Source of the DNA: an uncultured Kiloniellales bacterium
Lineage (GTDB): Bacteria > Actinomycetota > Acidimicrobiia > Spongiisociales > UBA5794
DNA: 64,000 nucleotides
Assembly: GCA_964195155.1 (NCBI GenBank)
Contig: CAXMOP010000115.1
Span: 4,986-68,985, forward strand
Direction of reading: 5' to 3'
The notes beneath the pieces were generated by a model. It did not search any database. It worked only from the letters and a program-made list of their open reading frames with translations, and had not been told where the DNA came from. Both the position numbers and the translations under genes were made by a program. Every line of letters starts with the position of its first letter. Position 1 is the stretch's first letter. Shown piece after piece: positions 3,504-50,782 of this stretch.

Positions 3504-5725
3504 ACGCCGGTCCTCTCGTTCCGCTCCCGCCGCCGCAAATACGCATAGGCGGCCAGCCCACCAAGCGCGAGCACGGTGAGCACCATGCCGATGTTCTCGG
3601 CACCGGTGTTGCGAAACTCGAGGACTACATCTTCCTGGGTGGGAACGACCACCATCAACGACGGCGCGGCACGGTATGGCCCCTCGGCACCATCCACCTG
3701 CCAATTCGGGAAGTAGGAGATCTTGACCAGATGCGGAACACCAATGGCGGTGGTGGTAAACGACAAGCGATGGTTCTCGAGTACCACGTTGGTCACGGAG
3801 CCGCCCTCCGGATACGGATCGCTGGAGATGAGCCGATCGCCGACCGAGGTCACGGCGGGCCATTCCGCCGGACCGGTCTCGACGAGCCAGTGGTCGAGGT
3901 TGGCGACGTCGTCGTACCACTCGAGTGATGGCTCGAGGAAGTCGCCGCCACCGCCCCACACCGCAGGCGTGACGGTGGCCACGTCGACGAAGTCGGAGTC
4001 CGGCAGCGCGAAGATCGTCCACGGCAAGGCGACACCGACTTCAACGAGGCCTGAGTCTCGAGCCGCGGTTTCCCCACGTTCGGTGAAACTGACGTAATAG
4101 GCCACGTCGTAGAGGGCGAGATGCTGAATACCGCGATCGAGGTCGAAGCCCCGGTAGTCGAGGCCGCGCACCGGGTTGGACGGCCGATCACTGACTTCCG
4201 AGGCGTTGAGGAAGTGGAATGGTGTGGTGAGGGATGATTCGAAGAACAGACCCTCCATGGACGGGTGCTCCTCGCTCCAAAAGCCCGTCAGCATGAGGGC
4301 CATCGGCGTGCCGTACTGGTTGAGTTCGTGGTTCGCCTCCCACATCACCCGGCCAGGCGGGAGTCCGTCGATCTCCTGCATGAGGGCCTCGTATTCGTGG
4401 TAGTTGGGCTTGCCCTCATACCCCTCGTAGTTCCACTTGACCCAGCCCGGAACGTCGTGGATGTTGGCAATGGTGGCGACAAGCACCAGAAACCCGGCAA
4501 TGAGGGACCCGGCGATCAGCACGGTCCTGCGCGCCGACGATCGCCTGGCCACTTCGGTCACCGCGAGTCCCAACGCAATACCGGCAAATACAAACATCCC
4601 GAAATACCAGTACGGCAGCAGCCGGGCGTTGTAGAGGATCGTGACGCCAAGAAGGGGCAGCACGAGATATCCGACGATGGGCAGGACGGTCAACCACGCC
4701 AATGCCACCACGTCGTCACGTCGCAGCATGCTCCACACCACGCCGACACCGCCGAGGATGACGACCGGAACGAACTCTCCCGGGAGCGGGGTCCCGGGAC
4801 TCTGCTCGCCGACGAGACCCGTTACCGCCGACCACCCCATGTCGGTCGTCAGCCCGCCCATCACGCCGAGGATGAGCGGAAGTGCCCAGAACGCGGCAAT
4901 GCCGAAGCCAAGCAGCCACGAGGGAAACACGACCCGTGGCCCGCCCTTACGGAACAGGAGGGGCACCGTTGCGATGACGATGATCATCGTGGTGACGATG
5001 TGGCTGAGCGCGGTCAGCCCGAGCAGCACGCCGGCGAGCGGCGTCCAGCCTCGGCCCTCGCGCACGTCGCGCACGACCACGCCGAGATAGAGGATCGAGA
5101 GGGCAAAAGACCACGAGAAGGAGAACTCGCCGGCGAGGGTGGACTTGATGTTGGCGCCGAAGATCGAATAGCTCTCCATGAACAGAAACATCCCGCCGGC
5201 CACAGCGGCGATCCCTGCGATCGGACGGGAGAACCCGGACATGCGGGAAAACAGATAGGTCACGGCGGGGAGGGCAACCAGGCCGACGATGGTGACCAGC
5301 TTGAACGCGACCCCGTAGGGAAGGACCACGTCGAGCAGCACCGTCGTGACCGCAGGCAAAGGGAAGTAGAAGTAGAGGACGGGGAAACCGGCATACCAGG
5401 CGTTCGACCAGCCCAGCAGCCTTCCCGATGAAATCAGATTGTCCGCCAACACCTTCGGCAGCAGGACGTGGGCGCCCATATCTCCGCCGGTCGGGGTGTT
5501 GGCGACCAGCAGCTGCGGGAATCTGATGAGATCACCGCTGCCGATCGTGCCCAGGATTCCCGACATCACCAGCAGGATGAGCAAGGTGGGAGCGCCGACC
5601 AGGACCGCAATCACCCAGGTCGGCACACCCTGGCGCGGGGTGAGCGGACGGCGAGGAGGCGCCGACTCTGGCGGCGCGATCGCGGTGGTTGACACCAGCG
5701 GCAGGCTAGAGGAGGTGGTGAGCAA
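3500..5725 (-). CDS. Large polytopic membrane protein, GT-C-like glycosyltransferase candidate (about 12 TM N-terminal, about 250-aa extracytoplasmic C-terminus)
   Basis: 741 aa. The architecture and the position upstream of gtrA match a GtrC-like/GT-C transferase. Confidence 0.7.
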   Translation of the reverse strand: MLTTSSSLPLVSTTAIAPPESAPPRRPLTPRQGVPTWVIAVLVGAPTLLILLVMSGILGTIGSGDLIRFPQLLVANTPTGGDMGAHVLLPKVLADNLISSGRLLGWSNAWYAGFPVLYFYFPLPAVTTVLLDVVLPYGVAFKLVTIVGLVALPAVTYLFSRMSGFSRPIAGIAAVAGGMFLFMESYSIFGANIKSTLAGEFSFSWSFALSILYLGVVVRDVREGRGWTPLAGVLLGLTALSHIVTTMIIVIATVPLLFRKGGPRVVFPSWLLGFGIAAFWALPLILGVMGGLTTDMGWSAVTGLVGEQSPGTPLPGEFVPVVILGGVGVVWSMLRRDDVVALAWLTVLPIVGYLVLPLLGVTILYNARLLPYWYFGMFVFAGIALGLAVTEVARRSSARRTVLIAGSLIAGFLVLVATIANIHDVPGWVKWNYEGYEGKPNYHEYEALMQEIDGLPPGRVMWEANHELNQYGTPMALMLTGFWSEEHPSMEGLFFESSLTTPFHFLNASEVSDRPSNPVRGLDYRGFDLDRGIQHLALYDVAYYVSFTERGETAARDSGLVEVGVALPWTIFALPDSDFVDVATVTPAVWGGGGDFLEPSLEWYDDVANLDHWLVETGPAEWPAVTSVGDRLISSDPYPEGGSVTNVVLENHRLSFTTTAIGVPHLVKISYFPNWQVDGAEGPYRAAPSLMVVVPTQEDVVLEFRNTGAENIGMVLTVLALGGLAAYAYLRRRERNERTGV

Positions 5726-5883: not shown

Positions 5884-6084
5884 TCAGGGTTCGCCGCGCT
5901 CCACATCGAGCAATGCGCCGAGTTCGAGATGCTCACCGTCGCGGTCCCACCACTTCGACTCACAGCGGTGGCATGAGCAGAAGATGACCTGAGAGCCATC
6001 CGGGAGGGTCAGCTCGATCTGGATGACCGAGTCGTTGCCACATTCTGCGCAGCGGAGCCCGGATGAGGGTTCTTGCCTTCCCAT
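5884..6084 (-). CDS. Small zinc-ribbon protein (CxxC...CxCHRC)
   Basis: 66 aa with CAECG and CSCHRCE cysteine pairs. Confidence 0.5.
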   Translation of the reverse strand: MGRQEPSSGLRCAECGNDSVIQIELTLPDGSQVIFCSCHRCESKWWDRDGEHLELGALLDVERGEP

Positions 6085-6103
6085 GACCGGTCAGGGTAGC
6101 GCG

Positions 6104-6391
6104 CTAAGCGCGAAAAGCGGCCTCTGGGAGGTCCTCGAGTTTGCCGAGGTAGCGCGACCGACGTTTGCCGTCCTCGGACCAATAGGCGTACCAATACGGG
6201 CCGTGGGGACAGCGGGTGCAGCTCTCCTTTCCGCAACGCACCTTCTGCTGGCGCAGCTTCACGTTGGGCCCGCGGTCGGAGAGCACCAGGCCCCGGCTCT
6301 CCAACCGGGCCTTGGCCAGGATGTAGAGGCGGCGCAGTTCGTGCTCATCCATCTCACGGACCGCCTCGAGCACATCTCTGTCGATTGGCAT
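6104..6391 (-). CDS. Hypothetical protein with a C-terminal CxxxxC..C..H motif
   Basis: ATG at 6391 is confirmed (MPIDRDVLEAV...). The C-terminus reads CGKESCTRCPHGPYWYAYW. Confidence 0.5.
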   Translation of the reverse strand: MPIDRDVLEAVREMDEHELRRLYILAKARLESRGLVLSDRGPNVKLRQQKVRCGKESCTRCPHGPYWYAYWSEDGKRRSRYLGKLEDLPEAAFRA

Positions 6392-6449
6392 GGAGCAAAC
6401 GAACTTAGGGCTCGGCGGGCTTCGGACCAAGGACTCAGGCGGTTGCCGG

Positions 6450-6512
6450 CCACTGGCCACTGGTCATTGGTCACTCGTCACTGGTCACTCGTCACTGATC
6501 TCACTCGTCACC
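6450..6512. repeat. Heptamer tandem array (CACTGGT/CACTCGT)x about 8
   Basis: Directly visible as ccactggccactggtcattggtcactcgtcactggtcactcgtcactga. It lies between two co-directional minus-strand genes. Confidence 0.85.
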
Positions 6513-6891
6513 GATCAAGCCCCGCTCGCCTTGCCGCGTCGCTCAGCGATCGCCGTCTCGGCACGCCGGCGACGAGGAGCTCGACCCGGAGGTCCCGATT
6601 GACTACCGCGGTGAGCGGGACGGATTCGACGCCGAGCTCCTCGAACACGGTCGGCTCGAGCTCCCAGGTGACCTCTCTCAGCGGCACACCGAGGGACTCA
6701 ACCATTGCCAGGGCTTGCTTGCAGTTCGCGCAGTCGGTGGAAGTGAAGACGACGACCCCGGGCTTGTCGGTGAGACCACCCAGGTCGATCGGCGGATGGG
6801 ATGGGCGGCGCCATCGTGCGATGAGCCTGGCGATGGCGATCACGATCAGGACTGCCAACAGCACGACGGCAATCCTGATCGCGATCGTCAC
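6508..6891 (-). CDS. Membrane-anchored thioredoxin/glutaredoxin-like protein (CANC motif)
   Basis: GTG at 6891 overlaps the upstream stop (GTGA). An N-terminal TM helix is followed by VVVFTSTDCANCKQA. Confidence 0.6.
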   Translation of the reverse strand: MTIAIRIAVVLLAVLIVIAIARLIARWRRPSHPPIDLGGLTDKPGVVVFTSTDCANCKQALAMVESLGVPLREVTWELEPTVFEELGVESVPLTAVVNRDLRVELLVAGVPRRRSLSDAARRAGLDR

Positions 6892-8348
6892 TCGACCGGG
6901 ATCCCGCCGATAAAGGCCACGCCGCGGCTGCTGGAAACGGAAAGGGCGGCACTGATTGGCACGGTCGCATCGATGATTACGCCGGACGTTCCGCTCTCGG
7001 TCACCTCGCCGAACGGGATCTCCACCTGCCGGCCCGGCAGGATGATGATCTTGTCCGGCCCTGCCGCGGCGGCGCCGAGTGGGGTGATGGTCACCGTGGC
7101 CTGATCGCCAGACGGGTTGATGATCCACAACGAGGTTTCGGCGGCAGGAACCACTCCGACACCGGGGATGATCCAGCGGGTCGCGGGATCGATATTGCCG
7201 GTCGTTGACGCCAGCCCGTTGAAGACCGCCGGCACCACGGGCTCTTCGGCTACAACGTCGCCCTCACCACCGCTATCGGGGGGCGGGTCCGCCGCATCGT
7301 CGGAGATGTCGTCGCCCACCACCGGATCAGCGCGGGGAAATGTGCCGGGCGGCGCAGCCTGGATCACTGCTCCCACCGGGACATTCGACCTGACCCTGAC
7401 GCCGAACGGCGGGTCGGCAAAGTCGCTCAGCTCGAGCCGTATCGGCTGGTTTGGCGACACCAACAGGCTAGTTACCTCCAGGATCGGCCCGCCGGGAGCG
7501 AAGATGTCGATGGCGACGTTCGCGGCCAGGCTGCCGGTATTGGAAAGGACGAGGGTGGGTTCGAGGCCGGGAACGCTGGTCACCGGGAAGTCCCAGGTCG
7601 CCGAACGACTCGTCCCGTTCCAGGTGGCTTCGTCTTGCTCGTTGCTCAGCACCAATGCGGGAATGACCAGCCCGGGATCGGTCTGCACGGTGAGGGTGAC
7701 GGTGTCGAGGAAGGGGATCACCCGAGAGAGGTCCTCGGTGACCCACGATCGGCCGGGAACGTCGAGCCCCTCGAAGCCGCCGAGGGGTGAGCTCCCGAAC
7801 TCACTGATCGCTTGCACCGTCACCTTGGCCGACTCCGGGAACGGATTGAAGAGCCTGAGCTGCAGGGTGAAACCCTCCGCGGTCGTGCCACCGACGAGGT
7901 GCCATACCTTCGGCACGGAGGCCACGCACTGGTCCCCACTCAGCAGATTCTCGGTCCACATCGCGGTGGTCACCACCGCCGGGCCGTCGTCGAACTCCAC
8001 GATGCCGGGCGACTCGCCTCGTCGCACGATCTCCGCGGTGTCGACGCTGCGGGCATCGGCGCCTTGCAGCTGGAATGCCAGGAGGTCCGGCTCGAGGATC
8101 GGGTTGACGTTTGGCAGCGTGATGAGTGCTTCCACATTGACCGCAGTGGCCACGTCGTATGTTGAATCCCTGACCGCGCCCGACGCCACCCACGGGCAAT
8201 ACCAGACGCTCTCCTCGCCCACCGCGCCGGCGGCATCGACCGGGACGGGGAACCCGAGGGCGGAGCCTTGGGACGGCACCGGCTCTGGCTGAACGAACGC
8301 CAACCCCGCCAGGACCATGAGTACGACGACGACGGCGATCCTTCTCAT
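6888..8348 (-). CDS. Secreted protein of unknown function (signal peptide MRRIAVVVVLMVLAGLAFVQP)
   Basis: ATG at 8348 forms an ATGA overlap with the upstream GT2 gene's stop. 487 aa, rich in beta-type sequence, with no recognisable catalytic motif. Confidence 0.65.
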   Translation of the reverse strand: MRRIAVVVVLMVLAGLAFVQPEPVPSQGSALGFPVPVDAAGAVGEESVWYCPWVASGAVRDSTYDVATAVNVEALITLPNVNPILEPDLLAFQLQGADARSVDTAEIVRRGESPGIVEFDDGPAVVTTAMWTENLLSGDQCVASVPKVWHLVGGTTAEGFTLQLRLFNPFPESAKVTVQAISEFGSSPLGGFEGLDVPGRSWVTEDLSRVIPFLDTVTLTVQTDPGLVIPALVLSNEQDEATWNGTSRSATWDFPVTSVPGLEPTLVLSNTGSLAANVAIDIFAPGGPILEVTSLLVSPNQPIRLELSDFADPPFGVRVRSNVPVGAVIQAAPPGTFPRADPVVGDDISDDAADPPPDSGGEGDVVAEEPVVPAVFNGLASTTGNIDPATRWIIPGVGVVPAAETSLWIINPSGDQATVTITPLGAAAAGPDKIIILPGRQVEIPFGEVTESGTSGVIIDATVPISAALSVSSSRGVAFIGGIPVE

Positions 8349-12101: not shown

Positions 12102-12796
12102 AGCGGATCGAGCTCATCCCCGTTGAGGGAGTTCCGGAGGTCCGGTCGGGCGACGAACTCGGCGGGATGATCGTCGCCGCCCTGGCGTCGTCGGGCGAGT
12201 CGCTCATCGACGGCGACGTGCTGGTCGTGACCCACAAGGTGATCTCGAAAGCCGAGGGACGGATCGCCGAGGTCGCTTCGGAGGAGGACTACCGAAAGCT
12301 GGTGGAGGACGAGGCCGAATCCATCATCCGCCGGCGGGGCGACCTCGTCATCACCAAGACGCGCCACGGCTTCATCTGCGCCAACGCCGGTGTCGATCGC
12401 TCGAATACCGCAGAGGGAACCGCGGTGCTGCTGCCGATCGAGCCGGATCGATCGGCCCATCGCCTTCGCGTCCAGATCCAGCACATGTTCGGGGTGTCGA
12501 TTGCCGTCGTAGTCACCGACACCTTTGGCCGCGCCTGGCGCCGCGGCCTGGTCGACGTGGCCATCGGGGTGTCTGGCCTGCCGGCGATCGTCGACCTGCG
12601 CGGCACCACCGACGCCTTCGGCCGAGTCCTCGACGTCACCGAGATCGCCCTCGTCGACGAGATCGCCGCTGCCGCCGACCTGGTGATGGGCAAGGCCAGC
12701 CAGGTCCCGGCGGCAATCCTGCGCGGGCTCACCCTCACCGGCGACGGCCGGGCCACCGACCTGGTCCGCCCCCCCGATGAAGACCTGTTCCGATGA
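12095..12796 (+). CDS. cofE: Coenzyme F420-0:L-glutamate ligase CofE (FbiB N-terminal domain type)
   Basis: An ATGGTGA overlap with the cofD stop. The VITHKVISKAEGR and ICANAGVD motifs are present. Confidence 0.85.
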   Translation: MVKRIELIPVEGVPEVRSGDELGGMIVAALASSGESLIDGDVLVVTHKVISKAEGRIAEVASEEDYRKLVEDEAESIIRRRGDLVITKTRHGFICANAGVDRSNTAEGTAVLLPIEPDRSAHRLRVQIQHMFGVSIAVVVTDTFGRAWRRGLVDVAIGVSGLPAIVDLRGTTDAFGRVLDVTEIALVDEIAAAADLVMGKASQVPAAILRGLTLTGDGRATDLVRPPDEDLFR

Positions 12797-12878
12797 GTCG
12801 CGAGTCACGAGTCGCGAGTCGCGAGCCCGAATCTTCGGTCGTGGTTTTGCTCGCGACTCGCGACTCGCGTCTGGCGTC
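12795..12878. repeat. Inverted heptamer arrays (GAGTCGC)x4-loop-(GCGACTC)x3 forming a long hairpin
   Basis: Directly visible as gagtcgcgagtcacgagtcgcgagtcgcgag ... ctcgcgactcgcgactcgcg, between cofE and fpg. Confidence 0.9.
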
Positions 12879-19598: not shown

Positions 19599-19629
19599 GA
19601 GTCGCGAGTCGCCAGTCGCCAGTTGCGAG
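19599..19629. repeat. Heptamer array GAGTCGC GAGTCGC CAGTCGC CAGTTGC
   Basis: Directly visible between the carboxylase beta and alpha genes. Confidence 0.85.
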
Positions 19630-23125: not shown

Positions 23126-25720
23126 ATGCTTTTTGGCGATGGTACCCAGGGGGGCCATTTCTATTCCCCACCTCCACCGGTCTATTCGCCACCAGCAAGA
23201 ACGTTCATGACCATGGATCCCAATATCCACGAGGCCCATCGCAGGGACCGCCGCCGCAGGCGGCTCCCATCGTTACTGCTGCTCACGATCATTGTGATCG
23301 TCGGGGCGAGCTGGGTCGGGTTGTTCGGGTTCCTCGGCTCCACCTCCGCAATGGGCACCGTCGAGGAAGTGGAGGAGCGGTTTCTCTGCGACATCAGCGG
23401 CGTCGATCTTTCCTTCCCCGATGTTTCCCGCCTCTCCGCGGTCGAGACCAGCGATGGCGTCGAGCTGGGCAAGCTCTCAGAGCGGAACAGCCAGCCGATC
23501 CCGATCGACGAGATCCCCGAGCTCGTGGTCAATGCGTTGCTCTCCGCCGAAGACAAGAGCTTCTACGAGCACGAGGGGGTCGACTTCCTGGCGGTGTTCC
23601 GTGCCGCCACCAGCGGTGGCGAGAGCGGTGCTTCCACGATCACCCAACAGGTCGTGAAGCAGAACTTCCTCAGCTCGGATCGCACCATCGAGCGAAAGAT
23701 CTGTGAGGCGCAGTTGGCGACCGAGCTGGAACGCCTATATACGAAGGACCAGATCCTCGAGTTCTATGCCAACTCGGTCTTTTTCGGCGCCAACGCCTAC
23801 GGGATCACGGCGGCAGCCCAGGAGTACTTCGGGAAGCCGCTCGAGGACCTCGACGCTGCCGAGGCTGCCACGTTGGTCAGCCCGATCAGGAACCCAAGCT
23901 TCTACCACCCACGCCAGAACCCGAGCAACGCCATCGGTGTCCGCAATCGCACCATCGCGAGCATGGAGGAGAACGGGTTCATCACCGCCGAGGAAGCAAC
24001 CGCGGCCAAGAGCCAGTCACTTGGTGTGCTCCCCCACTCCGAACGCGAGGAACTCGCTCCACAGGTCATGATCGCGGTGCGTCGCGCATTGCTTGACGAC
24101 ACCACAAACCGATTTGGTCTCGGCACTACCTATACCGAGCGCAAGCAAGCGGTGTTCGGGTGCCCGGCTGCGGACACCACGTGCGCCGGCGGGGGCGGCC
24201 TGAATATCGAAGTCACCGTCAACTTCGATTGGCAAACCGAAGGAACCCGGATCTTGCGGGCCTGGTATCGGCACGATGCCGGCGGGCCAACCGGCGCCAT
24301 CGCGACCGTGGAGAATGCGACCGGCGCGATTCGCGTGCTGGCGTCTGGCGTCGAGTACGGCACCGACCTCGCCGCCGGGGAGCGGCCATACGACCTTGCT
24401 CTCGAAGGGCGACGCCACGCCGGGTCGGCATTCAAGCCCTACACGCTGGCGGCGGCGCTCGAAAGCGGTGATCTGAACGGGCGGCCGGTCACCTTGAACT
24501 CGTACTGGGACCGAGGCAGGCCGGCCGTGATCGATTGTGGCTTCCCGTGTTCCTCGCGCGGCAATTTTTGGGTGGTCGATGCGGGCCTGAACACCCCTCA
24601 TGAGTTGCGTACCCTCGAGTCCGCAACGGTGTCGTCGCTGAATCCTGTCTACGCCAGGTTGATTGCCGCCATCGGCGCCGAGCCGGTCGTCGACATGGCC
24701 TATCGGCTCGGCATCCGCACGTCGGAGGTGAAGCCGGTGTATGCGGTGACCCTGGGCGCAGCGTCGGTCAGTCCGCTGGAGATGGCATCTGCGTACTCGA
24801 CCTTCGCCAACCAGGGGAACTACCTGGAGCCTTACCTGATCGAACGGATCACCGACTCGTCGGGCAACGTGATCTACCAGCATCGTCCCCAGCCGGAGCG
24901 AGTGCTCTCGCCGCAAATCGCTGCGGCGGTGACGACGACGCTCGAAAAGGTCGTCGCCGGGGGCACCGGTACCCGGGCCAAGATAGACCGGCCGCAGGCG
25001 GGCAAGACCGGAACGGCAACCGACAACACCGACGTGTGGTTCGTCGGATTCATCCCGCAATACTCCACTGCGGTGTGGGTCGGCTATCCCGACGGCGCGG
25101 TTCCGATGAAGAACTTCACGATCTTTAACGACGTCGAAGGCCGCGAGCAGTCGATTCGCCAGGCCTTCGGGGGCACGGTCGCCGCTCCCGCCTGGCGCCA
25201 GTTCATGCTCTACCTCACCGACGGTCTCGAGGTTCTCGACTTTCCCGAGCCGCCGGAGGGCACCAGCCAGTACTACCGCGTGCCGGGGACGCGGGTACCC
25301 AATATCAACCTCGAGAACATGAACCTCGCCAGGATCGAGGATCTGATCTATGCCGCCCACCTGCGCGTCGCGCTCGTCGAGGTCCCATCGCTCGAAGAGG
25401 TGGACACGCTGCTCAGCATGACGCCGGGATCGGGCGCGTCGATGGGTCAGGGCGGGGCCGTGACCATCGAGATCTCGATCGGCATCCCTGAGGAGATCGT
25501 GAGCCCGAACCTGGTCGGTCTGCCGGTAATCGAAGTCGATCCCACCCTCAATGCGTTCCTCGCCGAGTTCGCCGTCCAGCTCAACTGGGTGCGGCAAGAT
25601 GTCGAGACACCCGATCCCGCCCAGTGGGGACGCGTCGTCGCCACCGACCCCCCGCCGGGGGCCCTGGTGAGGCCCGGCGACACGATCATCGTGTCGGTTG
25701 GAGTCCAGCCAAGTAGCTGA
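23126..25720 (+). CDS. Class A penicillin-binding protein (PBP1A: transglycosylase plus transpeptidase plus a C-terminal PASTA-like tail)
   Basis: ATG at 23126 follows GGAGGG. A proline-rich cytoplasmic tail and a TM helix precede the domains. The GT51 motifs [12 protein letters not shown] and RKICE, the SAFKP serine and the KTGT box are all present. Confidence 0.85.
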
Positions 25721-25744
25721 GTCGCGAGTCGCGAGTCGCGAGTC
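25719..25744. repeat. (GAGTCGC)x3.5 heptamer array immediately after the PBP1A stop
   Basis: Directly visible. Confidence 0.9.
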
Positions 25745-25809
25745 ATGAGAACCTCTCACGCATCTCGCGTCTCGCATCTGGTCGGACCCCCAGCTAGGCG
25801 AATTCGTTG

Positions 25810-25894
25810 CCTCCCCCTCAGGGGGAGGTGCCGAGCGCCAGCGAGGCGGAGGGGGTCAAAGCCTTGCCGCGACCACGGTTCGACCCCCTCGCCT
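25810..25894. other. Two very stable GC hairpins: CCTCCCCCT/AGGGGGAGG at 25810-25828, and a 12-bp stem GGCGGAGGGGGTC...GACCCCCTCGCC at 25845-25894
   Basis: Perfect complementarity read directly. They sit in a 396-nt intergenic region. Confidence 0.7.
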
Positions 25895-25970
25895 CCCGAC
25901 TGTCGGGGCTCCCCCCTTTTCGGCTACTCGCTTCGCGCGCTTCCAGTGACCAGGTTTGTCCGTCCGGACT

Positions 25971-26048
25971 CGGTCACCGGTCACCGGTCACCGGTCCCTG
26001 GTCACTGGTCATTGGGATCTGCTCGCGTCACGGGTCTCGGGTCTGGCG
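25971..26048. repeat. Heptamer array (GGTCACC)x3 then GGTCCCT GGTCACT GGTCATT ...
   Basis: Directly visible. Confidence 0.85.
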
Positions 26049-26116
26049 ATGCTATTCTTCGCGCTCTCAGCTCGGCCTACTTGACTATAAGGGCGCCTAG
26101 CTGTACCTATATACCT

Positions 26117-26620
26117 ATGTCAGACTCGGCGGCGTCCGAAGCATCCCTCGCCGACGGTGTACGTCCTCCCACCGCTTCGATCAGGGAATCCGCGCCACCC
26201 TCGGGCGTCGCCGAGCATGACCAGTTCCTACCGAGTGGCCGGCCCATGTCCGCCCCCGCGGCTCCCCGGCCCACCGCTTCGATCCGGCCGCATCTTCGGC
26301 CCGTGGCATGGCGCGGGACCGGCGTGCGGAGCGGATTCTCCACCGACGATCCCTATGTGCGCCGCTTCTGGACGGCGGCCATAGGTCCGGGAGCGGTCGC
26401 GGACCTGATGCGTCTCGCCGTTGCCGCAGAGCGCGGCCGCTCCCTCCCCCGCCCCGAAGCCATCGGTGTCCTCGTCCGGGAGGACCTGGCTCGGTGGGTG
26501 GAGGGACGGCTGTTCGTGCGCACGACGATCCCGCCGCTGTCTGCCGCCCAGGAACGCCGCCTCAGCCCGGGGCTGAAGCGAGAGCACCGCGCCTCCCCGC
26601 AGCCTGCCGCGTCGAGCTAG
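26117..26620 (+). CDS. Hypothetical protein with an Ala/Pro-rich N-terminus and a conserved-looking C-terminal half
   Basis: ATG at 26117, preceded by the AT-rich run gtacctatatacctATG. The coding potential is moderate and no family could be assigned. Confidence 0.4.
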   Translation: MSDSAASEASLADGVRPPTASIRESAPPSGVAEHDQFLPSGRPMSAPAAPRPTASIRPHLRPVAWRGTGVRSGFSTDDPYVRRFWTAAIGPGAVADLMRLAVAAERGRSLPRPEAIGVLVREDLARWVEGRLFVRTTIPPLSAAQERRLSPGLKREHRASPQPAASS

Positions 26621-26630
26621 CGTTGTCGCC

Positions 26631-27743
26631 ATGGACTACCGGCGGCTCATCGAGCAATACCGCTCGGAAGTATCCGAGTTCTCGCCGTCGGAGGCGAAGA
26701 CGGAAGACTTCGCCGTCGTGATCGACGTCCGGGAACCCGTACAGCGTCTCGAAGGATCGATCGCCGATTCGATCGCCATGCCGAGGTCCGTCCTGGAACG
26801 AGAGATCAATGGAACGGTGCCGGACCGCGACGCGTCGATCCTCCTGTACTGCGTCGTCGGTGAGAGCTCGATCCTGGCCGCCCACACACTGCAGGCGCTC
26901 GGCTACCGCAACGTGAGCTCGTTGGCCGGCGGCTTCCGTCGATGGAAGGCCGACGGAAACCCCATCGTCCTCGATGACGCACTCGCCGCCGATGAGCGCA
27001 TCCGATACGACCGCCAGATTCGGCTCGACGAGATCGGCACCTCAGGTCAGCAGCGATTGCTCGCTTCTCGGGCACTGTTGATCGGAGCCGGCGGGCTTGG
27101 CTCCCCCGCCGCGCTCTACCTGGCTGCCGCTGGAGTCGGCTCCATCGGGATTGTCGACTTCGACCGGGTCGACGTGACCAATCTTCACCGGCAGATCCTG
27201 CACGACACGCCATCGATTGGAAGGGCGAAGACCGATTCGGCGGCCGAGCGGCTCGAAGCCCTGAACCCCGACGTCAAGGTCGAGGTCCACGGCATCCAGG
27301 TGTCGGACGAGAACGCGGTCGGCCTCGTGTCGGGCTACGACGTGATCATCGATGCCTCGGACAACTTCCCCACCAGGCTCGCCCTCAACGACGCCTCGAT
27401 TGCCACGGGGGTTCCACTGGTGCACGGATCGGCGCTGCGTTTCGAAGGAACGGTGGCAGTCTTCGACCCACCCAACGGTCCGTGCTATCGATGCCTGTTC
27501 CCCATCCTCCCGCAGGACGCGGCAACCTGCTCGGACGTCGGCGTCCTCGGAGCGTTGACCGGCGTCATCGGCTCGACCCAGGCCGTCGAGGCGATCAAGC
27601 TATTGCTCGGTGTCCGGCCCCTCTCCGGCGAGTTCCTCACCTACAACGCCCTCGACTCCCACTGGGCGAGGTACCGCTTCGAGAAGGACCCGCAGTGCCC
27701 TGCCTGCGGCGCAGAGTCCAGAGTCGAGAGGCCAGAGTCCTGA
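26631..27743 (+). CDS. ThiF/MoeB-type E1-like adenylyltransferase with an N-terminal rhodanese domain (reverse of the MoeZ order)
   Basis: Residues 1-110 form a rhodanese domain with an LYCVVGESS active-site Cys loop. Residues 120-370 form the ThiF domain with the GAGGLGS nucleotide motif and the CYRC...CPAC zinc motifs. Confidence 0.8.
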   Translation: MDYRRLIEQYRSEVSEFSPSEAKTEDFAVVIDVREPVQRLEGSIADSIAMPRSVLEREINGTVPDRDASILLYCVVGESSILAAHTLQALGYRNVSSLAGGFRRWKADGNPIVLDDALAADERIRYDRQIRLDEIGTSGQQRLLASRALLIGAGGLGSPAALYLAAAGVGSIGIVDFDRVDVTNLHRQILHDTPSIGRAKTDSAAERLEALNPDVKVEVHGIQVSDENAVGLVSGYDVIIDASDNFPTRLALNDASIATGVPLVHGSALRFEGTVAVFDPPNGPCYRCLFPILPQDAATCSDVGVLGALTGVIGSTQAVEAIKLLLGVRPLSGEFLTYNALDSHWARYRFEKDPQCPACGAESRVERPES

Positions 27744-27806
27744 GCAAGAGGCCCGAGTCCGACTCTCGACTCATGACTCTCGACTTAAGGCTCTCGACTC
27801 ATGACT
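27714..27806. repeat. Inverted heptamer arrays (GAGTCNN)x about 6 and (GACTCNN)x about 6 forming a long imperfect hairpin between convergent genes
   Basis: Directly visible. Confidence 0.85.
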
Positions 27807-29239
27807 GCTGCTAGCTCCACAAGGGTTCTGACGCCGAAACCGGATCCACCCTTGACCATGTAGTGATCGGTCTTGTCCGCCCGCGCTGGCCCGGCGATGT
27901 CCAGGTGCACCCAGGGCCGGTCCCCGGCGAACTCGGCAAGAAACAGGGCTGCGTTGATGGTGCCGCCCCAGTTGTCGTCTGCGATGTTCTGCAGGTCGGC
28001 GATCGACGAGTCGAGCTTCTGGCGGTATTCATGTTCCAGGGGAAGCTGCCACCACTTCTCTCCGGCGAATCGGCCGGCGGCGAGCACCGACTCTATTGCG
28101 TCCTCGTCGTTGCCGAGCACCGCACCGATGAGCTGGCCGAGGGCAACCTTGGCGGCGCCGGTCAGCGTGGCGATGTCGACCACGAGGTCGACGTCGGCAT
28201 CCGCGGCGATGCCGAGACCATCTGCCAACACCAGCCGGCCCTCGGCATCGGTGTTCAGCACTTCGACGGTCTTGCCGCCGTATGCGGTGAACACGTCGCC
28301 CGGGCGTTGCGCGGCGCCGCCGGTCATGTTCTCGGTGAGAGGAGCCACACCGATCACCCGAATCGGCAGGCCGAGCGCGGCAATGGCCTGCATGGCGCCG
28401 AAGACGGTCGCGGCTCCCGCCATGTCGGTCTTCATCGCCTCCATGCCCTTGGCCGGCTTGATCGACAGTCCGCCCGAGTCAAAGACGATTCCCTTGCCGA
28501 CCAGAGCCAGCGATGTGGAGGCGTCGTCTGGCTCGTAACGGAGCAGCACCATGCGGGGAGGACTGGTGGCACCGGAAGCGACGGCGAGCAGCCCGCCGTA
28601 GCCGCGGGATCGTGCCTCTTGCTCGTCGACGATCTCGACTTCGACTCCGGCGATCCCTGCGGCGCGCTCGGCGAGTACCGCCGGTGGCTTGTCGCCCGCC
28701 GGCTCATTGACCAGATCCCGTGTGAAGTTGACGCCCGCGGCGATCTTGGATGCCCGTTCGATCGCAGCACCGGCGCCGTCTTCGGCCTCCAGGAGCACGA
28801 GCCGCTCGGTCCTACGCTCCTTCGGTTCTGATCGGTACTCGTCGAATGAATAGGATCCGAGCAGAAAGCCAAGGGCCACCGCCTCGGCGGCCCCTTCGAC
28901 GTCGACCAGATGCAATGTGGTGGCGACCTTTGCCAAGGGACGGGCGGCTCGGCCGAGGGTGCCGGCTGCCCTTCGGATCGCCTCGGCATCGACCTCGTCG
29001 CCGAGACCGAGAAACAGCACCTCGGTGAAGCCGGTCTCCCCCCCGGGGACCGCGACCTGCTGGCCGGTCTTGCCGCTGAACTCACGCGCTGCGAGGTACT
29101 CGTCGAGCCAGTCGCCGAGCCGCTCGGAGACTGCGGCTCCCCCAGGCCCGTAGGTAGAATCGGCGAATACCGGCACGGCGAGCAAGTCGCCGGCCGCTTC
29201 GGCGAGGGATCCTCCTGTTTCGATCTCAGTCATCGGCAT
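27785..29239 (-). CDS. pepA: Leucyl aminopeptidase (M17, PepA)
   Basis: NTDAEGRL and the M17 metal-ligand region VGKGIVFDSGG are present. Confidence 0.85.
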   Translation of the reverse strand: MPMTEIETGGSLAEAAGDLLAVPVFADSTYGPGGAAVSERLGDWLDEYLAAREFSGKTGQQVAVPGGETGFTEVLFLGLGDEVDAEAIRRAAGTLGRAARPLAKVATTLHLVDVEGAAEAVALGFLLGSYSFDEYRSEPKERRTERLVLLEAEDGAGAAIERASKIAAGVNFTRDLVNEPAGDKPPAVLAERAAGIAGVEVEIVDEQEARSRGYGGLLAVASGATSPPRMVLLRYEPDDASTSLALVGKGIVFDSGGLSIKPAKGMEAMKTDMAGAATVFGAMQAIAALGLPIRVIGVAPLTENMTGGAAQRPGDVFTAYGGKTVEVLNTDAEGRLVLADGLGIAADADVDLVVDIATLTGAAKVALGQLIGAVLGNDEDAIESVLAAGRFAGEKWWQLPLEHEYRQKLDSSIADLQNIADDNWGGTINAALFLAEFAGDRPWVHLDIAGPARADKTDHYMVKGGSGFGVRTLVELAAVMSREP

Positions 29240-38838: not shown

Positions 38839-39912
38839 CTACCCGACCGTGTACAGCTCGCGGTCCGACCGGTTCAACCGCTCCACGCCGTCGTCGGTGA
38901 CCGTCACGATGTCTTCGATCCGCATCCCCCAGTGACCGGGTTGGTAGATGCCCGGCTCGATGGAAAAAGCCATGCCGGAGACCAGCTCAGTGGTGTCTCC
39001 TTTGACGAGATAGGGTCGCTCGTGGGTGTCGAGGCCGATACCGTGCCCGGTGCGGTGGATGAAGAGCTCGCCGTATCCGCCGTCCTCGATCACGGTCCGA
39101 GCTGCGACATCAATGGACCCGGCGGTTACCCCCGGCTTCACCGCATCCACGGCCGATCGTTGCGCGGCGCCGAGCACCTCGTACGCCTCGGCGAACCCCC
39201 CCGGGGGGTCTCCCACCACGAACATGCGAGTGGTGTCGGATCCGTATCCATCGAGCCAGCCGCCGAAGTCAACGACAACGGCGTCGCCACGCTCGATCAT
39301 CCGGCCGGTCGGCTCGTGGTGGGGCGATGCGCCGTTTGGCCCGGAGGCGACGATGGCAAAGCCGCTCCTCTGATGGCCCGAGTCGAGCGTCATCTCGTCG
39401 ATCAGCCGCGACAGCTCGCGTTCGCTGCGCCCTGAGAACCTGGTCGCCCCCAGCCGGGCAACCACCGCGTCGGTGGCTGCACCCGCGGCGCGGAGAGACG
39501 CGATCTCGCCCTCGTCCTTCACCATGCGCAGCTCGGACATCAGCGGTTCGGCCGGTTCGAACCGCGCACCCGGCAGCCGGGTCTGCATGCCGATCAAGAA
39601 GGTTGCCCAGGTCTGGTTGCCAACGGCGACGGTGGAAGCGTTGCCGATCAGGCCAGCGAGGATCGCGATTGGATCCTCGGTCTCCGACCAGGCCCGCTTC
39701 TCCACACCGGACTCGACGCGCACCTCCTCGAGCACCGGTACCAACAGGACTGGATCACCCTCGGCGGGCAGCACCAGTGCGGTGATGCGCTCGTTCTCCA
39801 TTGCCTGGTACCCGATCAGATACGGCAGATCGGATCCAACGGTGACGACGAGGGCATCGACGCCGCGGCGAGCCATCTCCAGTCGCGCCGAAGCGATCCG
39901 GCGCTCGTTCAC
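38839..39912 (-). CDS. M24-family Xaa-Pro aminopeptidase/dipeptidase
   Basis: A pita-bread fold with HRTGHGIGLDTHE metal ligands. GTG start at 39912. Confidence 0.8.
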   Translation of the reverse strand: MNERRIASARLEMARRGVDALVVTVGSDLPYLIGYQAMENERITALVLPAEGDPVLLVPVLEEVRVESGVEKRAWSETEDPIAILAGLIGNASTVAVGNQTWATFLIGMQTRLPGARFEPAEPLMSELRMVKDEGEIASLRAAGAATDAVVARLGATRFSGRSERELSRLIDEMTLDSGHQRSGFAIVASGPNGASPHHEPTGRMIERGDAVVVDFGGWLDGYGSDTTRMFVVGDPPGGFAEAYEVLGAAQRSAVDAVKPGVTAGSIDVAARTVIEDGGYGELFIHRTGHGIGLDTHERPYLVKGDTTELVSGMAFSIEPGIYQPGHWGMRIEDIVTVTDDGVERLNRSDRELYTVG

Positions 39913-41555
39913 GTGGCCTGGGCGAGCGAGTCGCGGGCGTGATAGGAGGAACGGACCAGCGGACCGGACTCAACATGGCTGATCCCGAGAGACTCGCCGT
40001 GGCTGCGATATCTGGCGAACTCATCGGGATGGACGTAGCGATGGATCGGGCGGTGCCGCGGCGTTGGCCGGAGGTACTGGCCGATCGTGACCAGATCGAC
40101 GCCGACCGCCCGGAGGTCGGCGAGCGTCCCGAGCACCTCTTCCTCGGTCTCCCCCATCCCGACGATCAGGCCCGACTTCACCGTGCCCGCCGGGTTGAGC
40201 CACTTGGCTCTCGCCAGCAGGGTCAACGACCGTGCGTAGTTGGCGGCGGTGCGGATCTCCCGTTGCAGACGCAGCACGGTCTCGGTGTTGTGATTGAGGA
40301 CCTCGGGCTTCTCGCCGACCATGGACTCGAGAGCGTCCCGATCGCCCTTGAAGTCGGGGATCAGCACCTCGACGTCGCAGCCGGGAACGAGGTCGCGGAT
40401 CCTTCGGACCGTCTCAGCAAAGATCCCGGCGCCACCGTCGGGAAGGTCGTCGCGGTTGACCGAGGTCAATACCGCGTGACGCAATCCCATCTGCTGTATG
40501 GCCTCGGCGGCCCGCAGCGGCTCATCGACGTCGACCTCGCCGGGCTTGCCCGTGTTGACGTCGCAGAAGGAACAGGCGCGGGTGCAGGTATCACCGAGCA
40601 GCATCAAGGTCGCAGTGCCGGCCTCCCAGCACTCATAGATGTTGGGGCAACCCGCTTCCTCGCACACGGTGTTGAGCTCGAGTCCCCGCATCAGCTGCTT
40701 CAGCTCCCCGTATCCGTCAGAGCCAAGGTTTGCCCTGACCTTCATCCATTCGGGACGAGCCGGCTCGCCCGGGAGGAGGCCACCGATCAGGATCGGGGTC
40801 TCCCCACGGCCGGCCGCGGAGAACGCACCGGATGCGACCATCGCATCGACGTCGTACCGGCCGGATCGCTCGCTTGGCCGGAAGGCGCCGAGCTGTATCT
40901 CCGGCTCCACGGATCCAAAGACTGCCGCTGCGTGCGGAACCAGGGCATCGATGACGGACTCCATCGGGAGATGCTCACCGATCAGCTGGGCGATCGAGGT
41001 CACCGGCCGGTCGGCGATCCCGCATGGGACGATGTTGGAGAAGTATGCAAGGTCCGGGTCCACGTTGAGGGCAAAGCCGTGGGTTGAAACTCCCCGGGCA
41101 ACCCGAACCCCGATGGCGGCCACCTTGCCCCGCCCGGTCCACACGCCGGTCTGGCCGGCCTCGGCCCAGGCTTCGATGCCGAGATCGGCGAGGGCGGCGA
41201 TGAGCATCGCCTCGAGGCGGCGAACGTGGCCGACCATGTCCCAGCCATTTGCCAGCTTCGGGATAGCAACGATCGGGTAGCCGACGAGCTGGCCGGGGCC
41301 GTGGTACGTGATGTCGCCGCCGCGATCGACGTGGTGCAACCTGGCACCAATCGCGTCGAGGTCGGCCTCGGCGATGGTGAGATTGGATCCGTCACCGTTT
41401 CGGCCGACCGTGTAGGTATGCGGGTGCTCCAGCAGCAGCAGGTAGTCGTCCGCGGACCGACCCTCGGTTCGTCCCTCCCAGAACGCACGCTGCAGGTCCC
41501 ATGCCTCGTCGTACTCGACGCGGCCGAGCCACCGCACACGGAGGCGGTGGCTCAT
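39909..41555 (-). CDS. In-frame fusion of octanoyltransferase LipB (N-terminal, about 238 aa) and lipoyl synthase LipA (C-terminal, about 310 aa)
   Basis: ATG at 41555 forms an ATGA overlap with the E2 gene stop. The LipB catalytic region includes TYHGPGQLVGYPI and the catalytic C of ...VPCGI. LipA then follows with RPEWMKV, the [4Fe-4S] triad CEEAGCPNIYEC and the radical-SAM triad CTRACSFC. There is no stop codon between the two halves. Confidence 0.8.
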   Translation of the reverse strand: MSHRLRVRWLGRVEYDEAWDLQRAFWEGRTEGRSADDYLLLLEHPHTYTVGRNGDGSNLTIAEADLDAIGARLHHVDRGGDITYHGPGQLVGYPIVAIPKLANGWDMVGHVRRLEAMLIAALADLGIEAWAEAGQTGVWTGRGKVAAIGVRVARGVSTHGFALNVDPDLAYFSNIVPCGIADRPVTSIAQLIGEHLPMESVIDALVPHAAAVFGSVEPEIQLGAFRPSERSGRYDVDAMVASGAFSAAGRGETPILIGGLLPGEPARPEWMKVRANLGSDGYGELKQLMRGLELNTVCEEAGCPNIYECWEAGTATLMLLGDTCTRACSFCDVNTGKPGEVDVDEPLRAAEAIQQMGLRHAVLTSVNRDDLPDGGAGIFAETVRRIRDLVPGCDVEVLIPDFKGDRDALESMVGEKPEVLNHNTETVLRLQREIRTAANYARSLTLLARAKWLNPAGTVKSGLIVGMGETEEEVLGTLADLRAVGVDLVTIGQYLRPTPRHRPIHRYVHPDEFARYRSHGESLGISHVESGPLVRSSYHARDSLAQAT

Positions 41556-43048
41556 CGCAGTTCCTGTTCCCAATCCCAGGATTCGAGGTTCCGCTTGATT
41601 TGGGCGAGGAACAGCACCGCCGTCGAGCCGTCGAATGCCCGGTGGTCCCAGCTGAGCCCGAGATACCCGATGTGACGAATGGCAACGGTGTCGGTGCCGT
41701 CGGGAAGGGTCACCACAACCGGGCGCTTCACCACGGTGTCGGTGGACAGGATGGCGACGTTTGGCTGGTTGATGATCGGTGCGCTCATGAACGAGCCGAA
41801 CGGCCCCGGGTTGGTGATCGTGAACGTGCTGGTGGAAAGATCCTCCGGATGGAGCTTCCCGGCGCGGGCGCGTTCCGCAACACCGCGGATGTCCCGGGCA
41901 AGGCCGGTGAGGCTGCCCGAGTCGGCCTCAGGGAGGGTCAGGACGATGAGCCCTCCCTGACTGAGGTCGACGGCGATGCCGAGGTCAACGCCGCTGTGGA
42001 ACGTCTGTGTGCCCGCTTCGAGGTCGAACGAGCTGTTCACCGCCGGGTAGGCGCCGAGGGCATCGATCGTCGCCCGCGAGATGAACGGGAGGTAGGTGAG
42101 CGAGAAACCCTCGGTTTCCTTGAAACGCGGCCCGTGCCCTTGACGGGCTCGGGCGACCGACTCGAAATCCACCTCGACCGAGGTCCACACGTGAGCCGAA
42201 GTTTGCTTCGAGGCGATCATGTGCTCTGCCGTGACGCGACGGATCTTCGTCATCGGTGTGACCCCGCCGGCCTCGTCGGCCGTAGGCGCCGCCGCGTCGG
42301 CCGCGGGCACGACCAGTTCGGCCGCTGGTGGCTCTGCTCGCTCCTGGGGCTCGACGGCGACCGCAACCACCGGCTCCTCGACAATCACTTTGGTCGTTGC
42401 GGCCACTGCGCCCGTGGCAACGAATGCCTCAACATCCTTTCGGGTGATCCGGCCACCGGTGCCGGTGCCGACAACCTGATCGAGGTCCACGCCGTTGTCG
42501 GCGGCGAGCTTCCGCACCACCGGCGAGAGCTGCGCCCGTCGTGAGTCGTCGCCTGCAACAGCGGTCGTCGCGGCGGCTGCGGCGACGGGGACGGCCGGTT
42601 GGACGGGAGCCGACTCGGCCGGCGTCGATGCCACCGCGTCGGAGGACTCGGGCGGCGGTCGCTCGGTACCCGTTGGCCCCTGCTGCGACCACACCGCGCC
42701 CGCGCCGGCCGGTGCCTGGGCGGCGACCGGCTGTGGCGAAGGGGCCTCTTCGGGGGCTGCTTCCGCTGCTGGCTCCGTCACCGGTTCTTCCGCCGCCCCC
42801 GGCTCCTCGTCGGCGCCGGTGATGACGACGATCTCGGTACCGACCTCGACCGTTTCGCCCTCCTGGACGAGGATCTGCTCGATGACGCCGGCTACCGGCG
42901 ACGGCATCTCGGTGTCGACCTTGTCGGTGGAGATCTCGACGAGAACCTCATCGATGGCGATCTCGTCGCCGACCTGCTTCGCCCAGGAAAGGATGGTGCC
43001 CTCGGTGACCGTTTCACCGAGTTGGGGCATCGTGACCGTCACTGCCAT
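41552..43048 (-). CDS. Dihydrolipoyllysine-residue acyltransferase (E2 of a 2-oxo-acid dehydrogenase complex; DlaT/SucB-like)
   Basis: ATG at 43048, 9 nt after GGAGGAG. A single lipoyl domain (EISTDKVDTE) is followed by an Ala/Pro linker, a PSBD and a catalytic domain with the DHRAFDG motif. Confidence 0.85.
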   Translation of the reverse strand: MAVTVTMPQLGETVTEGTILSWAKQVGDEIAIDEVLVEISTDKVDTEMPSPVAGVIEQILVQEGETVEVGTEIVVITGADEEPGAAEEPVTEPAAEAAPEEAPSPQPVAAQAPAGAGAVWSQQGPTGTERPPPESSDAVASTPAESAPVQPAVPVAAAAATTAVAGDDSRRAQLSPVVRKLAADNGVDLDQVVGTGTGGRITRKDVEAFVATGAVAATTKVIVEEPVVAVAVEPQERAEPPAAELVVPAADAAAPTADEAGGVTPMTKIRRVTAEHMIASKQTSAHVWTSVEVDFESVARARQGHGPRFKETEGFSLTYLPFISRATIDALGAYPAVNSSFDLEAGTQTFHSGVDLGIAVDLSQGGLIVLTLPEADSGSLTGLARDIRGVAERARAGKLHPEDLSTSTFTITNPGPFGSFMSAPIINQPNVAILSTDTVVKRPVVVTLPDGTDTVAIRHIGYLGLSWDHRAFDGSTAVLFLAQIKRNLESWDWEQELR

Positions 43049-47286: not shown

Positions 47287-47335
47287 GTCCAGGGTCCGAA
47301 CTCCCGACTCTCGACTCTCATTAGGCTCTCGCTCC
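47287..47335. repeat. Heptamer array GACTCTC GACTCTC ... preceded by AGTCCAG GGTCCGA
   Basis: Directly visible between tlpA-like and the LLM oxidoreductase gene. Confidence 0.8.
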
Positions 47336-50296: not shown

Positions 50297-50326
50297 CCAA
50301 ACCGGGCGGGGCGGTATCGTTTTGCC

Positions 50327-50782
50327 ATGAGCAATCTCGAAGAGCTGTACCGCCAGGTCATTCTCGACCACTACCGCAACCCACGGCGCCGGGGAAAGCT
50401 GACCGGGCCGCACGTCCATGCCGAGGGGCTCAATCCGTCGTGCGGCGACGAGTTCTTCCTCGATCTGCTCATCGAAGACGGCGTGATCACCGATATGGCG
50501 ATCGATGGCCAGGGGTGCTCCATCTCGCAGGCTTCGGGTTCGATGATGACCGACGCCATTGTCGGCAAGAGCGTCGAGGACGTCCGGATCGTGTCCGGCC
50601 AGTTCAAGCTGATGATGGGGATCGACGAGGGTGACGACCCGCTCGACCATGAGCGCCCCGGAGCCGTGCTCGGCGATCTCGAGGCATTGCAGGGGGTCCG
50701 AAAGTTTCCGGTGCGCATCAAGTGTGCGGATCTGCCCTGGACGACGCTGGCCGACGCCCTTGATCATGCAGAGGATGAGTAG
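50327..50782 (+). CDS. sufU: SufU/IscU-like zinc-dependent sulfurtransferase scaffold
   Basis: The NPSCGDE, GQGCSIS and C-terminal CADLPW cysteines are present. Confidence 0.85.
   Translation: MSNLEELYRQVILDHYRNPRRRGKLTGPHVHAEGLNPSCGDEFFLDLLIEDGVITDMAIDGQGCSISQASGSMMTDAIVGKSVEDVRIVSGQFKLMMGIDEGDDPLDHERPGAVLGDLEALQGVRKFPVRIKCADLPWTTLADALDHAEDE

Follow-up and report, generated by a model that had tools for sequence, protein, structure and literature searches.

A probable MoeZ-like E1 enzyme with an N-terminal rhodanese domain, encoded beside a predicted leaderless winged-helix gene in an uncultured Acidimicrobiia bacterium

The 64,000-nt stretch analyzed here (the window; GC content ~65%) belongs to contig CAXMOP010000115.1 of assembly GCA_964195155.1, from an uncultured bacterium that GTDB places in the Acidimicrobiia. 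It encodes a 370-residue protein in which a rhodanese domain precedes a ThiF domain (Rhod-ThiF), preceded on the same strand by a small gene that encodes a winged-helix-like protein (Table 1). The original prediction had taken this domain order, the reverse of that in MoeZ-type enzymes, as the possible sign of a distinct sulfur-relay variant. Our analysis of domains and motifs, of their conservation, of synteny and of promoter conservation leads to a different assignment: we consider it highly probable that the protein is a MoeZ-like E1 sulfur-carrier activating enzyme with a built-in persulfide donor, whose carriers are encoded elsewhere. The enzyme itself matters little, being a member of a known and already annotated kind. 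What is mildly new is the winged-helix family, the conserved cluster with its promoter, and a set of intergenic heptamer arrays.

The domain layout that the original prediction had read from the sequence agreed with the Pfam matches, which place the rhodanese domain with its active-site Cys74 at the N terminus and the ThiF/MoeB adenylation domain with both CxxC pairs (C285/C288 and C356/C359) at the C terminus. Only six cysteines occur in the protein (C74, C285, C288, C300, C356 and C359). In a HMMER alignment to Escherichia coli MoeB (1jw9_B), C285, C288 and C300 correspond to MoeB C172, C175 and C187, and D244 corresponds to D130. We take C172 and C175 to be two of the zinc ligands of MoeB, C187 to be its crossover-loop cysteine and D130 its catalytic aspartate. 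All adenylation and zinc-binding motifs are present in the 370-residue protein and conserved across 39 aligned homologues: G152/G154, D176, R187, D244 and the first CxxC pair are kept in 38 to 39 of them, G157 in 35, and the second CxxC pair and C300 in 32. The rhodanese cysteine is invariant in all aligned homologues that have an N-terminal rhodanese. The loop that carries it reads CVVGESS or CVVGQSS in the window's close clade, while CxxGxRS is usual in other members.

A curated model for this architecture already exists. NF006444 (PRK08762, "molybdopterin-synthase adenylyltransferase MoeB") aligned residues 4 to 363 with profile positions 4 to 371 of 387 (E = 1e-129), that is, end to end, with both domains in the same order; since the model spans the whole protein, the N-terminal rhodanese is already contained in it. 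The subfamily model NF004281 was passed (283.8 bits; cutoff, 266). The MoeZ model NF005902 matched the ThiF half only (267 bits against a cutoff of 647; profile positions 12 to 262 of 392), and the model for the SAMP-activating E1 UbaA, NF047750, scored 269.7 bits, below its equivalog cutoff of 450. The best sequence matches in the PDB were E. coli MoeB and ThiF (E = 1e-57, 198 bits each), followed by Uba4 (E = 1e-45). A 100% identical protein (P0001) is already present in NCBI, JGI and ENA, and metagenomic contigs, as well as one from the metagenome-assembled genome GCA_964194755.1, carry the identical protein with the same neighboring genes. The closest relatives carry the labels Acidimicrobiia or Acidimicrobiaceae. 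At least 120 clusters (90% identity) aligned with the query in a single collinear alignment, all with at least 96% query coverage, and those among the best 120 that have a name are called MoeB or sulfur-carrier protein adenylyltransferase/sulfurtransferase.

For the taxonomic spread of the architecture, one genome per species was scanned, and the query was then split into its rhodanese and ThiF halves. The scan detected the rhodanese-first order in Actinomycetota (Acidimicrobiia and others), Chloroflexota and Deltaproteobacteria (Syntrophus, Syntrophorhabdaceae and Desulfomonilaceae); in many other phyla, ThiF either stands alone or precedes the rhodanese, as is canonical. Candidates in Gemmatimonadota, Verrucomicrobiota and Bacteroidota were rejected with the split query, which matched canonical ThiF-Rhod proteins as two segments, and those in Acidobacteriota, Myxococcota and a Thermoplasmata archaeon likewise proved to be canonical ThiF-Rhod. 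The N-terminal rhodaneses of the clade matched the query with E values of 1e-10 to 1e-50, compared to 1e-5 to 1e-12 for canonical C-terminal rhodaneses. Because the N-terminal rhodaneses are far more alike among themselves than to the C-terminal ones, the two domain orders look like separate fusions and not like a recent permutation. Judged from these matches, the rhodanese-first order is common, modelled, named and widespread, and the "inverted order" is no discovery. The suggestion of a distinct sulfur-relay variant is thus not supported, given the full-length NF006444 match and the clusters of the same architecture that are already named MoeB or sulfurtransferase.

Like mycobacterial MoeZR/MoeBR, human MOCS3 and yeast Uba4, the window protein combines an E1-like adenylation domain and a rhodanese in one chain, and it is expected to share their chemistry, adenylation followed by thiocarboxylation of the carrier. 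It differs from them in its N-terminal rhodanese, which is C-terminal in all of these enzymes. With E. coli MoeB (1JW9) and ThiF (1ZUD/1ZFN) it has in common the nucleotide loop, the Asp130-equivalent D244, the four zinc cysteines and the crossover-loop cysteine; these two E. coli proteins have no rhodanese domain and receive their sulfur from separate proteins. We infer substrates and catalysis as follows. In a zinc-stabilized dimer, the ThiF domain would bind ATP and activate its carriers, one or more ThiS/MoaD/CysO-type proteins whose genes lie elsewhere in the genome, by adenylating their C-terminal glycine. In the rhodanese domain, Cys74 would be converted to a persulfide, the probable sulfur source being a cysteine desulfurase, and the persulfide sulfur would then turn the acyl-adenylate into a thiocarboxylate. 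For Uba4, adenylation and thiocarboxylation of Urm1 are described in two reports (PMC7527816, PMC6007339). A SufS-type gene at 49064-50296 is a candidate for the source of sulfur for the rhodanese domain. The Suf iron-sulfur genes of the window are split: genes for a SufC-type ATP-binding cassette (ABC) ATPase, the SufS-type class V aminotransferase and a SufU-type NifU_N protein lie at 48315-50782 (+), and a SufBD-core gene and a Rieske protein gene lie ~7 kb away from them at 57774-59368 (-).

The crossover-loop Cys300 would probably act as a catalytic nucleophile or resolving residue. Selenocysteine (Sec)/Cys pairs usually mark catalytic redox residues, and at the Cys300 column six deltaproteobacterial Rhod-ThiF homologues (L018, L019, L020, L026, L027 and L072; L numbers denote homologous loci) have an in-frame TGA (APTUSEVGVLG vs. 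AATCSDVGVLG). Because such pairs fall on this column, we infer that Cys300 takes part in catalysis. The six homologues are probable selenoproteins of the MoeB selenoprotein family described by Zhang, Fomenko and Gladyshev in 2005 (PMC1088965); they have the same Rhod-ThiF order, and the window protein would be the Cys form. The thioester cysteine of Uba4, which has been proposed to be catalytic (PMC6007339), offers a parallel. Together with the unusual CVVGESS loop, the Sec/Cys pair provides concrete residues to test in a class of enzymes that appears to be biochemically unstudied.

Several points weigh against a MoeZ-like carrier-activating enzyme. With 432.4 bits, the NF006444 match stays a little below the equivalog cutoff of that model (449 bits). 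In the clade's CVVGESS loop, a Glu occupies the position of the Arg found in other members, which could lower or change persulfide chemistry. Our literature search found no biochemical study of any rhodanese-first enzyme and, as far as we found, the name MoeB for the NF006444 family is an annotation and not an experimental result. In addition, no ThiS/MoaD, MoaE, ThiG, CysM or JAB gene was found in the 64-kb window by Pfam, which covered most of its genes.

The original prediction had noted that no ThiS/MoaD/CysO-like carrier is encoded nearby, and this now extends to the whole window. We searched for carriers with precomputed Pfam matches and scans of our own, and the few small or Pfam-less open reading frames (ORFs) were judged by GC content at third codon positions (GC3) and sequence only. 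There was no plausible GG-terminal ORF in the window, the eight ORFs that end in GG being off-frame Arg/Pro-rich junk, and nothing ThiS-like was found among the ORFs in the gaps of the GC3-based gene map. At other loci, rhodanese-first homologues do have such neighbors. One (L020) adjoins a ThiS-like GG protein, and three (L026, L027 and L072) are immediately followed by ORFs of ~95 residues ending in RFxMLSGG, which are possible cognate carriers. In L005 and L006, Acidimicrobiia relatives with 53% identity, a Prok-JAB peptidase adjoins Rhod-ThiF, an arrangement that matches the E1+rhodanese/JAB neighborhoods described by Iyer, Burroughs and Aravind (PMC1779556). MoaD-like GG neighbors (L030, L048, L059 and L061) and a ThiS-like one (L023) were rejected as partners of rhodanese-first enzymes, their hosts being canonical ThiF-Rhod proteins. 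Mycobacterial MoeZR has been reported to act in both molybdenum-cofactor and cysteine (CysO) biosynthesis (PMC3227635), so one E1-rhodanese protein can serve unlinked carriers. This dual role and the JAB and GG neighbors elsewhere indicate that an unlinked carrier is normal for this class of enzymes.

A narrower reading would make the protein a dedicated MoeB that acts in molybdenum-cofactor synthesis only, as in the NCBI annotation of its homologues. Both the best NCBIfam models and the NCBI homologue names say MoeB, and in L006 a MoCF_biosynth gene lies 7.6 kb from Rhod-ThiF. These names, however, are inherited from family models and not from experiments, the PDB matches to E. coli ThiF and MoeB score alike, and the window contains no molybdenum-cofactor gene. 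CysO-type or other carriers are suggested instead by the JAB and PALP/Cys_Met_Meta_PP neighbors in L005 and L006, and the rhodanese-fused MoeZR has been reported to have two functions (PMC3227635). We therefore regard a role restricted to molybdenum-cofactor synthesis as unlikely, and retain the MoeZ-like enzyme with unlinked carriers as the preferred assignment.

The gene upstream of Rhod-ThiF had been described as encoding an unassigned Ala/Pro-rich protein of 168 residues; its position, strand and composition (A 15.6%, R 13.2%, P 12.0%, S 10.8%) stand, and the length is corrected to 167 residues plus the stop codon. GC3 is 0.79 within 26117-26617, compared to 0.63 in the open in-frame stretch upstream, and the N termini of homologues coincide with the ATG at 26117. 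A public gene call (P0121; 291 residues, 25745-26620) adds 124 codons that cross the repeat-filled spacer and are absent from homologues; given the lower GC3 and the homologue N termini, this call is probably over-extended. A word-indexed search returned 134 homologues of the 167-residue protein, and a full hidden Markov model search returned 294 clusters (50% identity). The family members are mostly 100 to 170 residues long, and all named ones are from Acidimicrobiia or Actinomycetota. Pfam gave no match in 27 family members and 10 distant or longer ones, save for the serine recombinase P0382 (575 residues), which has Resolvase and Recombinase domains and whose C-terminal ~60 residues match the winged-helix profile (E = 6e-8). 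This recombinase is the sole multi-domain context that was found for the winged-helix domain, and it fits a DNA-binding role.

A structure prediction for the neighbor had been proposed along with the original prediction. When it was run, the 167-residue protein was modelled, with confidence, as a winged helix and not as a beta-grasp fold, so that, on this model, it is winged-helix-like and no beta-grasp carrier. A PDB sequence-profile search with the family gave nothing beyond a 17-residue match to CalO2 (E = 0.67), which we attribute to chance. The best Foldseek matches in the PDB (E = 0.3) were the winged-helix N-terminal domains of the Gram-positive primosome proteins DnaB/DnaD (5WTN, 8OJJ and 2VN2). 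With 5 to 12% identity, no sequence-level match, and generic winged-helix regulators scoring nearly equally, this modelled likeness is a resemblance of fold and not family membership. The conserved arginines R82, R99, R106 and R108 are compatible with nucleic-acid binding. A WhiB-like or sulfur-carrier identity was rejected, as the protein has no Cys and no GG end and its model is a helical winged helix. Most likely, the protein would bind DNA, possibly in an autoregulatory manner, and act outside sulfur chemistry.

We scanned metagenomes with the winged-helix alignment and obtained 80 loci, 56 of which were informative (at least 3.5 kb of downstream sequence). In 55 of these 56, Rhod-ThiF lies downstream of the winged-helix gene on the same strand; the linkage of the two genes is strong. 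They are directly adjacent in 12 loci, comprising the window's close clade and three distant loci. A SIR2 gene lies between them with short gaps in 32 loci, one more gene is present between them in a further 11, and SIR2 is found between the two in 43 of the 56 loci overall. In L014, the winged-helix gene is inverted and still adjacent to Rhod-ThiF. In the window, SIR2 is located elsewhere, which leaves the winged-helix gene and Rhod-ThiF just 10 nt apart. Its only SIR2 homologue, at 55856-56632 (-), lies ~29 kb from the cluster, by NAPRTase and fumarase genes. A Pfam-less winged-helix family of ~300 clusters is thus tightly linked to the rhodanese-first enzyme and to a sirtuin in Acidimicrobiia.

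This linkage, the 10-nt gap and the adjacency that outlasts inversion in L014 would all suit the relay envisaged by the original prediction, one without a classical GG carrier and with the 167-residue protein perhaps as partner or substrate, and so would the absence of a carrier from the window. Nevertheless, we find such a relay extremely improbable. The neighbor is modelled as a winged helix and not as a beta-grasp protein, the C terminus of its family is variable and a GG end was never seen, and most Rhod-ThiF genes outside the Acidimicrobiia subclade have no winged-helix neighbor (L005, L006, L013 and L015-L021). Some of them adjoin classical GG-terminal ORFs or a JAB peptidase, and it is common for enzymes of the E1 type to have carriers encoded at a distance, MoeZR being one example (PMC3227635).

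The order of genes in relatives is methylmalonyl-CoA mutase (-), class A penicillin-binding protein (PBP; +), sometimes an ABC transporter, then the winged-helix gene, SIR2, Rhod-ThiF, CAP and PepA (-). It is a real possibility, to which we give just short of an even chance, that the winged-helix gene and Rhod-ThiF stay linked through gene order inherited within a conservative region, without functional meaning. In these Acidimicrobiia the block is syntenic from the mutase through PepA and on to cobalamin adenosyltransferase and transketolase, the winged-helix gene always follows the PBP gene, and 11 loci tolerate extra genes between the winged-helix gene and SIR2. On the other hand, the same-strand order and short gaps are kept at 44 to 56% protein identity, against flanks in which genes such as ABC, SLT and CAP come and go. 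Because the entire region is syntenic, inherited order and functional coupling are inseparable with the present data. It is possible, but in our view unlikely, that in an Acidimicrobiia subclade the leaderless winged-helix gene, the sirtuin and the rhodanese-first E1 belong to a single functional module, in which the winged-helix protein would regulate or partner sulfur-carrier activation and lysine deacylation. Such a module, if true, would represent a hitherto undescribed unit that controls sulfur-carrier or ubiquitin-like chemistry. The cluster of this genome does not include the sirtuin gene.

The SIR2 gene in 43 of 56 loci, the JAB gene adjacent in L005 and L006 and the 270-bit score of the UbaA model might also suggest an E1 for ubiquitin-like conjugation (TtuB/SAMP-like), with the sirtuin or JAB peptidase of relatives acting on lysine modifications. 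We think this very unlikely, as the UbaA score is far under its cutoff, the cluster in the window has neither SIR2 nor JAB, and the fused rhodanese points to sulfur transfer. PADLOC gave no support either: its E1-E2 models (anti-phage E1-E2/Cap2-like, NF058523) matched the adenylation core only, with at most 69 bits and partial profile coverage, and neither the winged-helix protein nor either SIR2 protein matched a PADLOC defense model. An anti-phage E1-E2/Cap2-like system was rejected, since the generic adenylation fold alone had matched. The MoeZ-like sulfur-carrier activating enzyme remains our assignment for Rhod-ThiF.

The original prediction had suspected a leaderless or unusual promoter at the winged-helix gene, whose ATG at 26117 is embedded in an AT-rich string (TACCTATATACCTATG, 26104-26119), and comparison of homologous loci strengthened this suspicion. 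Four divergent loci have TTGAC and an A/T-rich block directly 5' of the ATG, and TTGAY is found exactly 36 nt 5' of the start codon in 64 of 78 evaluable loci (54 distinct sequences). Among the 54 sequences, T at -15 is present in all, G at -14 in 52 and T/A/T at -12 to -10 in 44 to 45. The layout is that of a -35 hexamer, an 18-nt spacer and an extended -10, with the A of the ATG at +1; no Shine-Dalgarno sequence precedes the start, and there is no space for a 5' untranslated region. A predicted transcription start at the A of ATG 26117, giving a leaderless mRNA, is well supported by this conservation. A consensus promoter/terminator scan of 25600-27900 made no call because the window's own -10 hexamer is weak. 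Rhod-ThiF is probably co-transcribed with the upstream winged-helix gene from this promoter. Rfam, run at gathering thresholds over the full 64 kb, gave no match, hence no riboswitch before the cluster. The well-conserved promoter, placed for a leaderless mRNA, offers a clean case in which to study leaderless expression in an uncultured lineage.

Repeats of the TTGA type with a spacing of ~10 nt occur 45 nt 5' of the winged-helix start at several loci (L124, L128, L129, L144, L167 and others), an example being TTGACGTTGC TTGATGTTAT TTGATATGTA. One group of loci has TTGATATCA at both the -35 and the -10 positions, and in the window's clade TACCTATA is duplicated in the promoter region. Such repeats may serve the winged-helix protein itself as operators.

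Table 1. Coordinates of the winged-helix/Rhod-ThiF cluster and of heptamer arrays in the window
Feature	Position	Strand	Details
Winged-helix promoter	26081-26116	+	Comparison of homologous loci
-35 hexamer TTGACT	26081-26086	+	
Extended -10 TG	26102-26103	+	
Weak -10 hexamer ACCTAT	26105-26110	+	
Winged-helix gene	26117-26620	+	167 residues plus stop; disordered Ala/Pro/Ser-rich residues 1-50, winged-helix-like ~55-160
Rhodanese-ThiF gene	26631-27743	+	370-residue product; Pfam and NCBIfam matches
Rhodanese domain PF00581, residues 28-107	26712-26951	+	Pfam E = 7.8e-12; 46 bits, cutoff 22.2
Rhodanese active-site Cys74 codon	26850-26852	+	Loop LLYCVVGESS
ThiF/MoeB adenylation domain PF00899, residues 126-358	27006-27704	+	E = 4.1e-77; 259 bits, cutoff 28.1
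ThiF-domain motifs			GAGGLG, residues 152-157; NLHRQ, residues 184-188; Asp244
Zinc-binding pair Cys285/288 (CYRC)	27483-27494	+	
Crossover-loop Cys300 codon	27528-27530	+	
Zinc-binding pair Cys356/359 (CPAC)	27696-27707	+	CPACG at end of MoeB alignment
Arrays in the 396-nt PBP/winged-helix spacer	25719-26044		GAGTCGC x3.7, CGCATCT x3, CGGTCAC x5.9, CTCGGGT x3.3; Tandem Repeats Finder (TRF)
Complementary arrays (CAGAGTC)n and (CGACTCT)n, long hairpin	27712-27806		Between convergent Rhod-ThiF and pepA; TRF, folding
Further heptamer arrays	79-192, 6451-6516, 12795-12869, 19599-19629		
Further heptamer arrays	47300-47319, 52139-52164, 63419-63512		

TRF found 15 heptanucleotide tandem arrays in the window, with 3 to 7 copies each and essentially all intergenic. 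Their units include GAGTCGC, GACTCGC, AGTCGTC, CAGAGTC, CGGTCAC and CACTGGT, and many contain GANTC. Long hairpins arise from complementary pairs of arrays, whereas single arrays do not fold in this way. The pair behind Rhod-ThiF folds into a hairpin (27700-27815), a probable bidirectional terminator, with energies of -54.1 kcal/mol for the + strand (z = -3.5) and -58.1 kcal/mol for the - strand (z = -3.4), and the hairpin at 12788-12878 reaches -54 kcal/mol (z = -6.0). In the PBP/winged-helix spacer, 25712-25790 folds with -32.1 kcal/mol (z = -2.3) and 25960-26055 with z = -1.4. This spacer is only ~70 to 170 nt long in L007, L010 and L011. Heptamer arrays are absent from L007, L010, L011 and L012, and L014 has its own set of units. 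The arrays are candidate terminators or repetitive extragenic palindromic (REP)-like elements. An array also supplies the last ~10 codons of Rhod-ThiF (AESRVERPES, 27712-27743); this tail follows the CPACG with which the ThiF domain ends, and several close homologues, at 360 to 367 residues, are shorter by as many as 10.

Some further genes of the window merit mention. An ORF of 296 residues at 6023-6913 (+), which has neither a Pfam match nor a gene record and in which the heptamer arrays at 6451-6516 lie, is probably non-coding. A 741-residue ORF at 3500-5725 (-) likewise has no Pfam match and shows good codon bias. The product of 39909-41573 (-), 548 to 554 residues long, has a lipoate-protein ligase/octanoyltransferase catalytic domain (LplA-B_cat) and a lipoyl synthase part (LIAS_N, Radical_SAM) and is by these domains an apparent LipB-LipA fusion; its gene adjoins those for the E2 and E3 components of a 2-oxoacid dehydrogenase.

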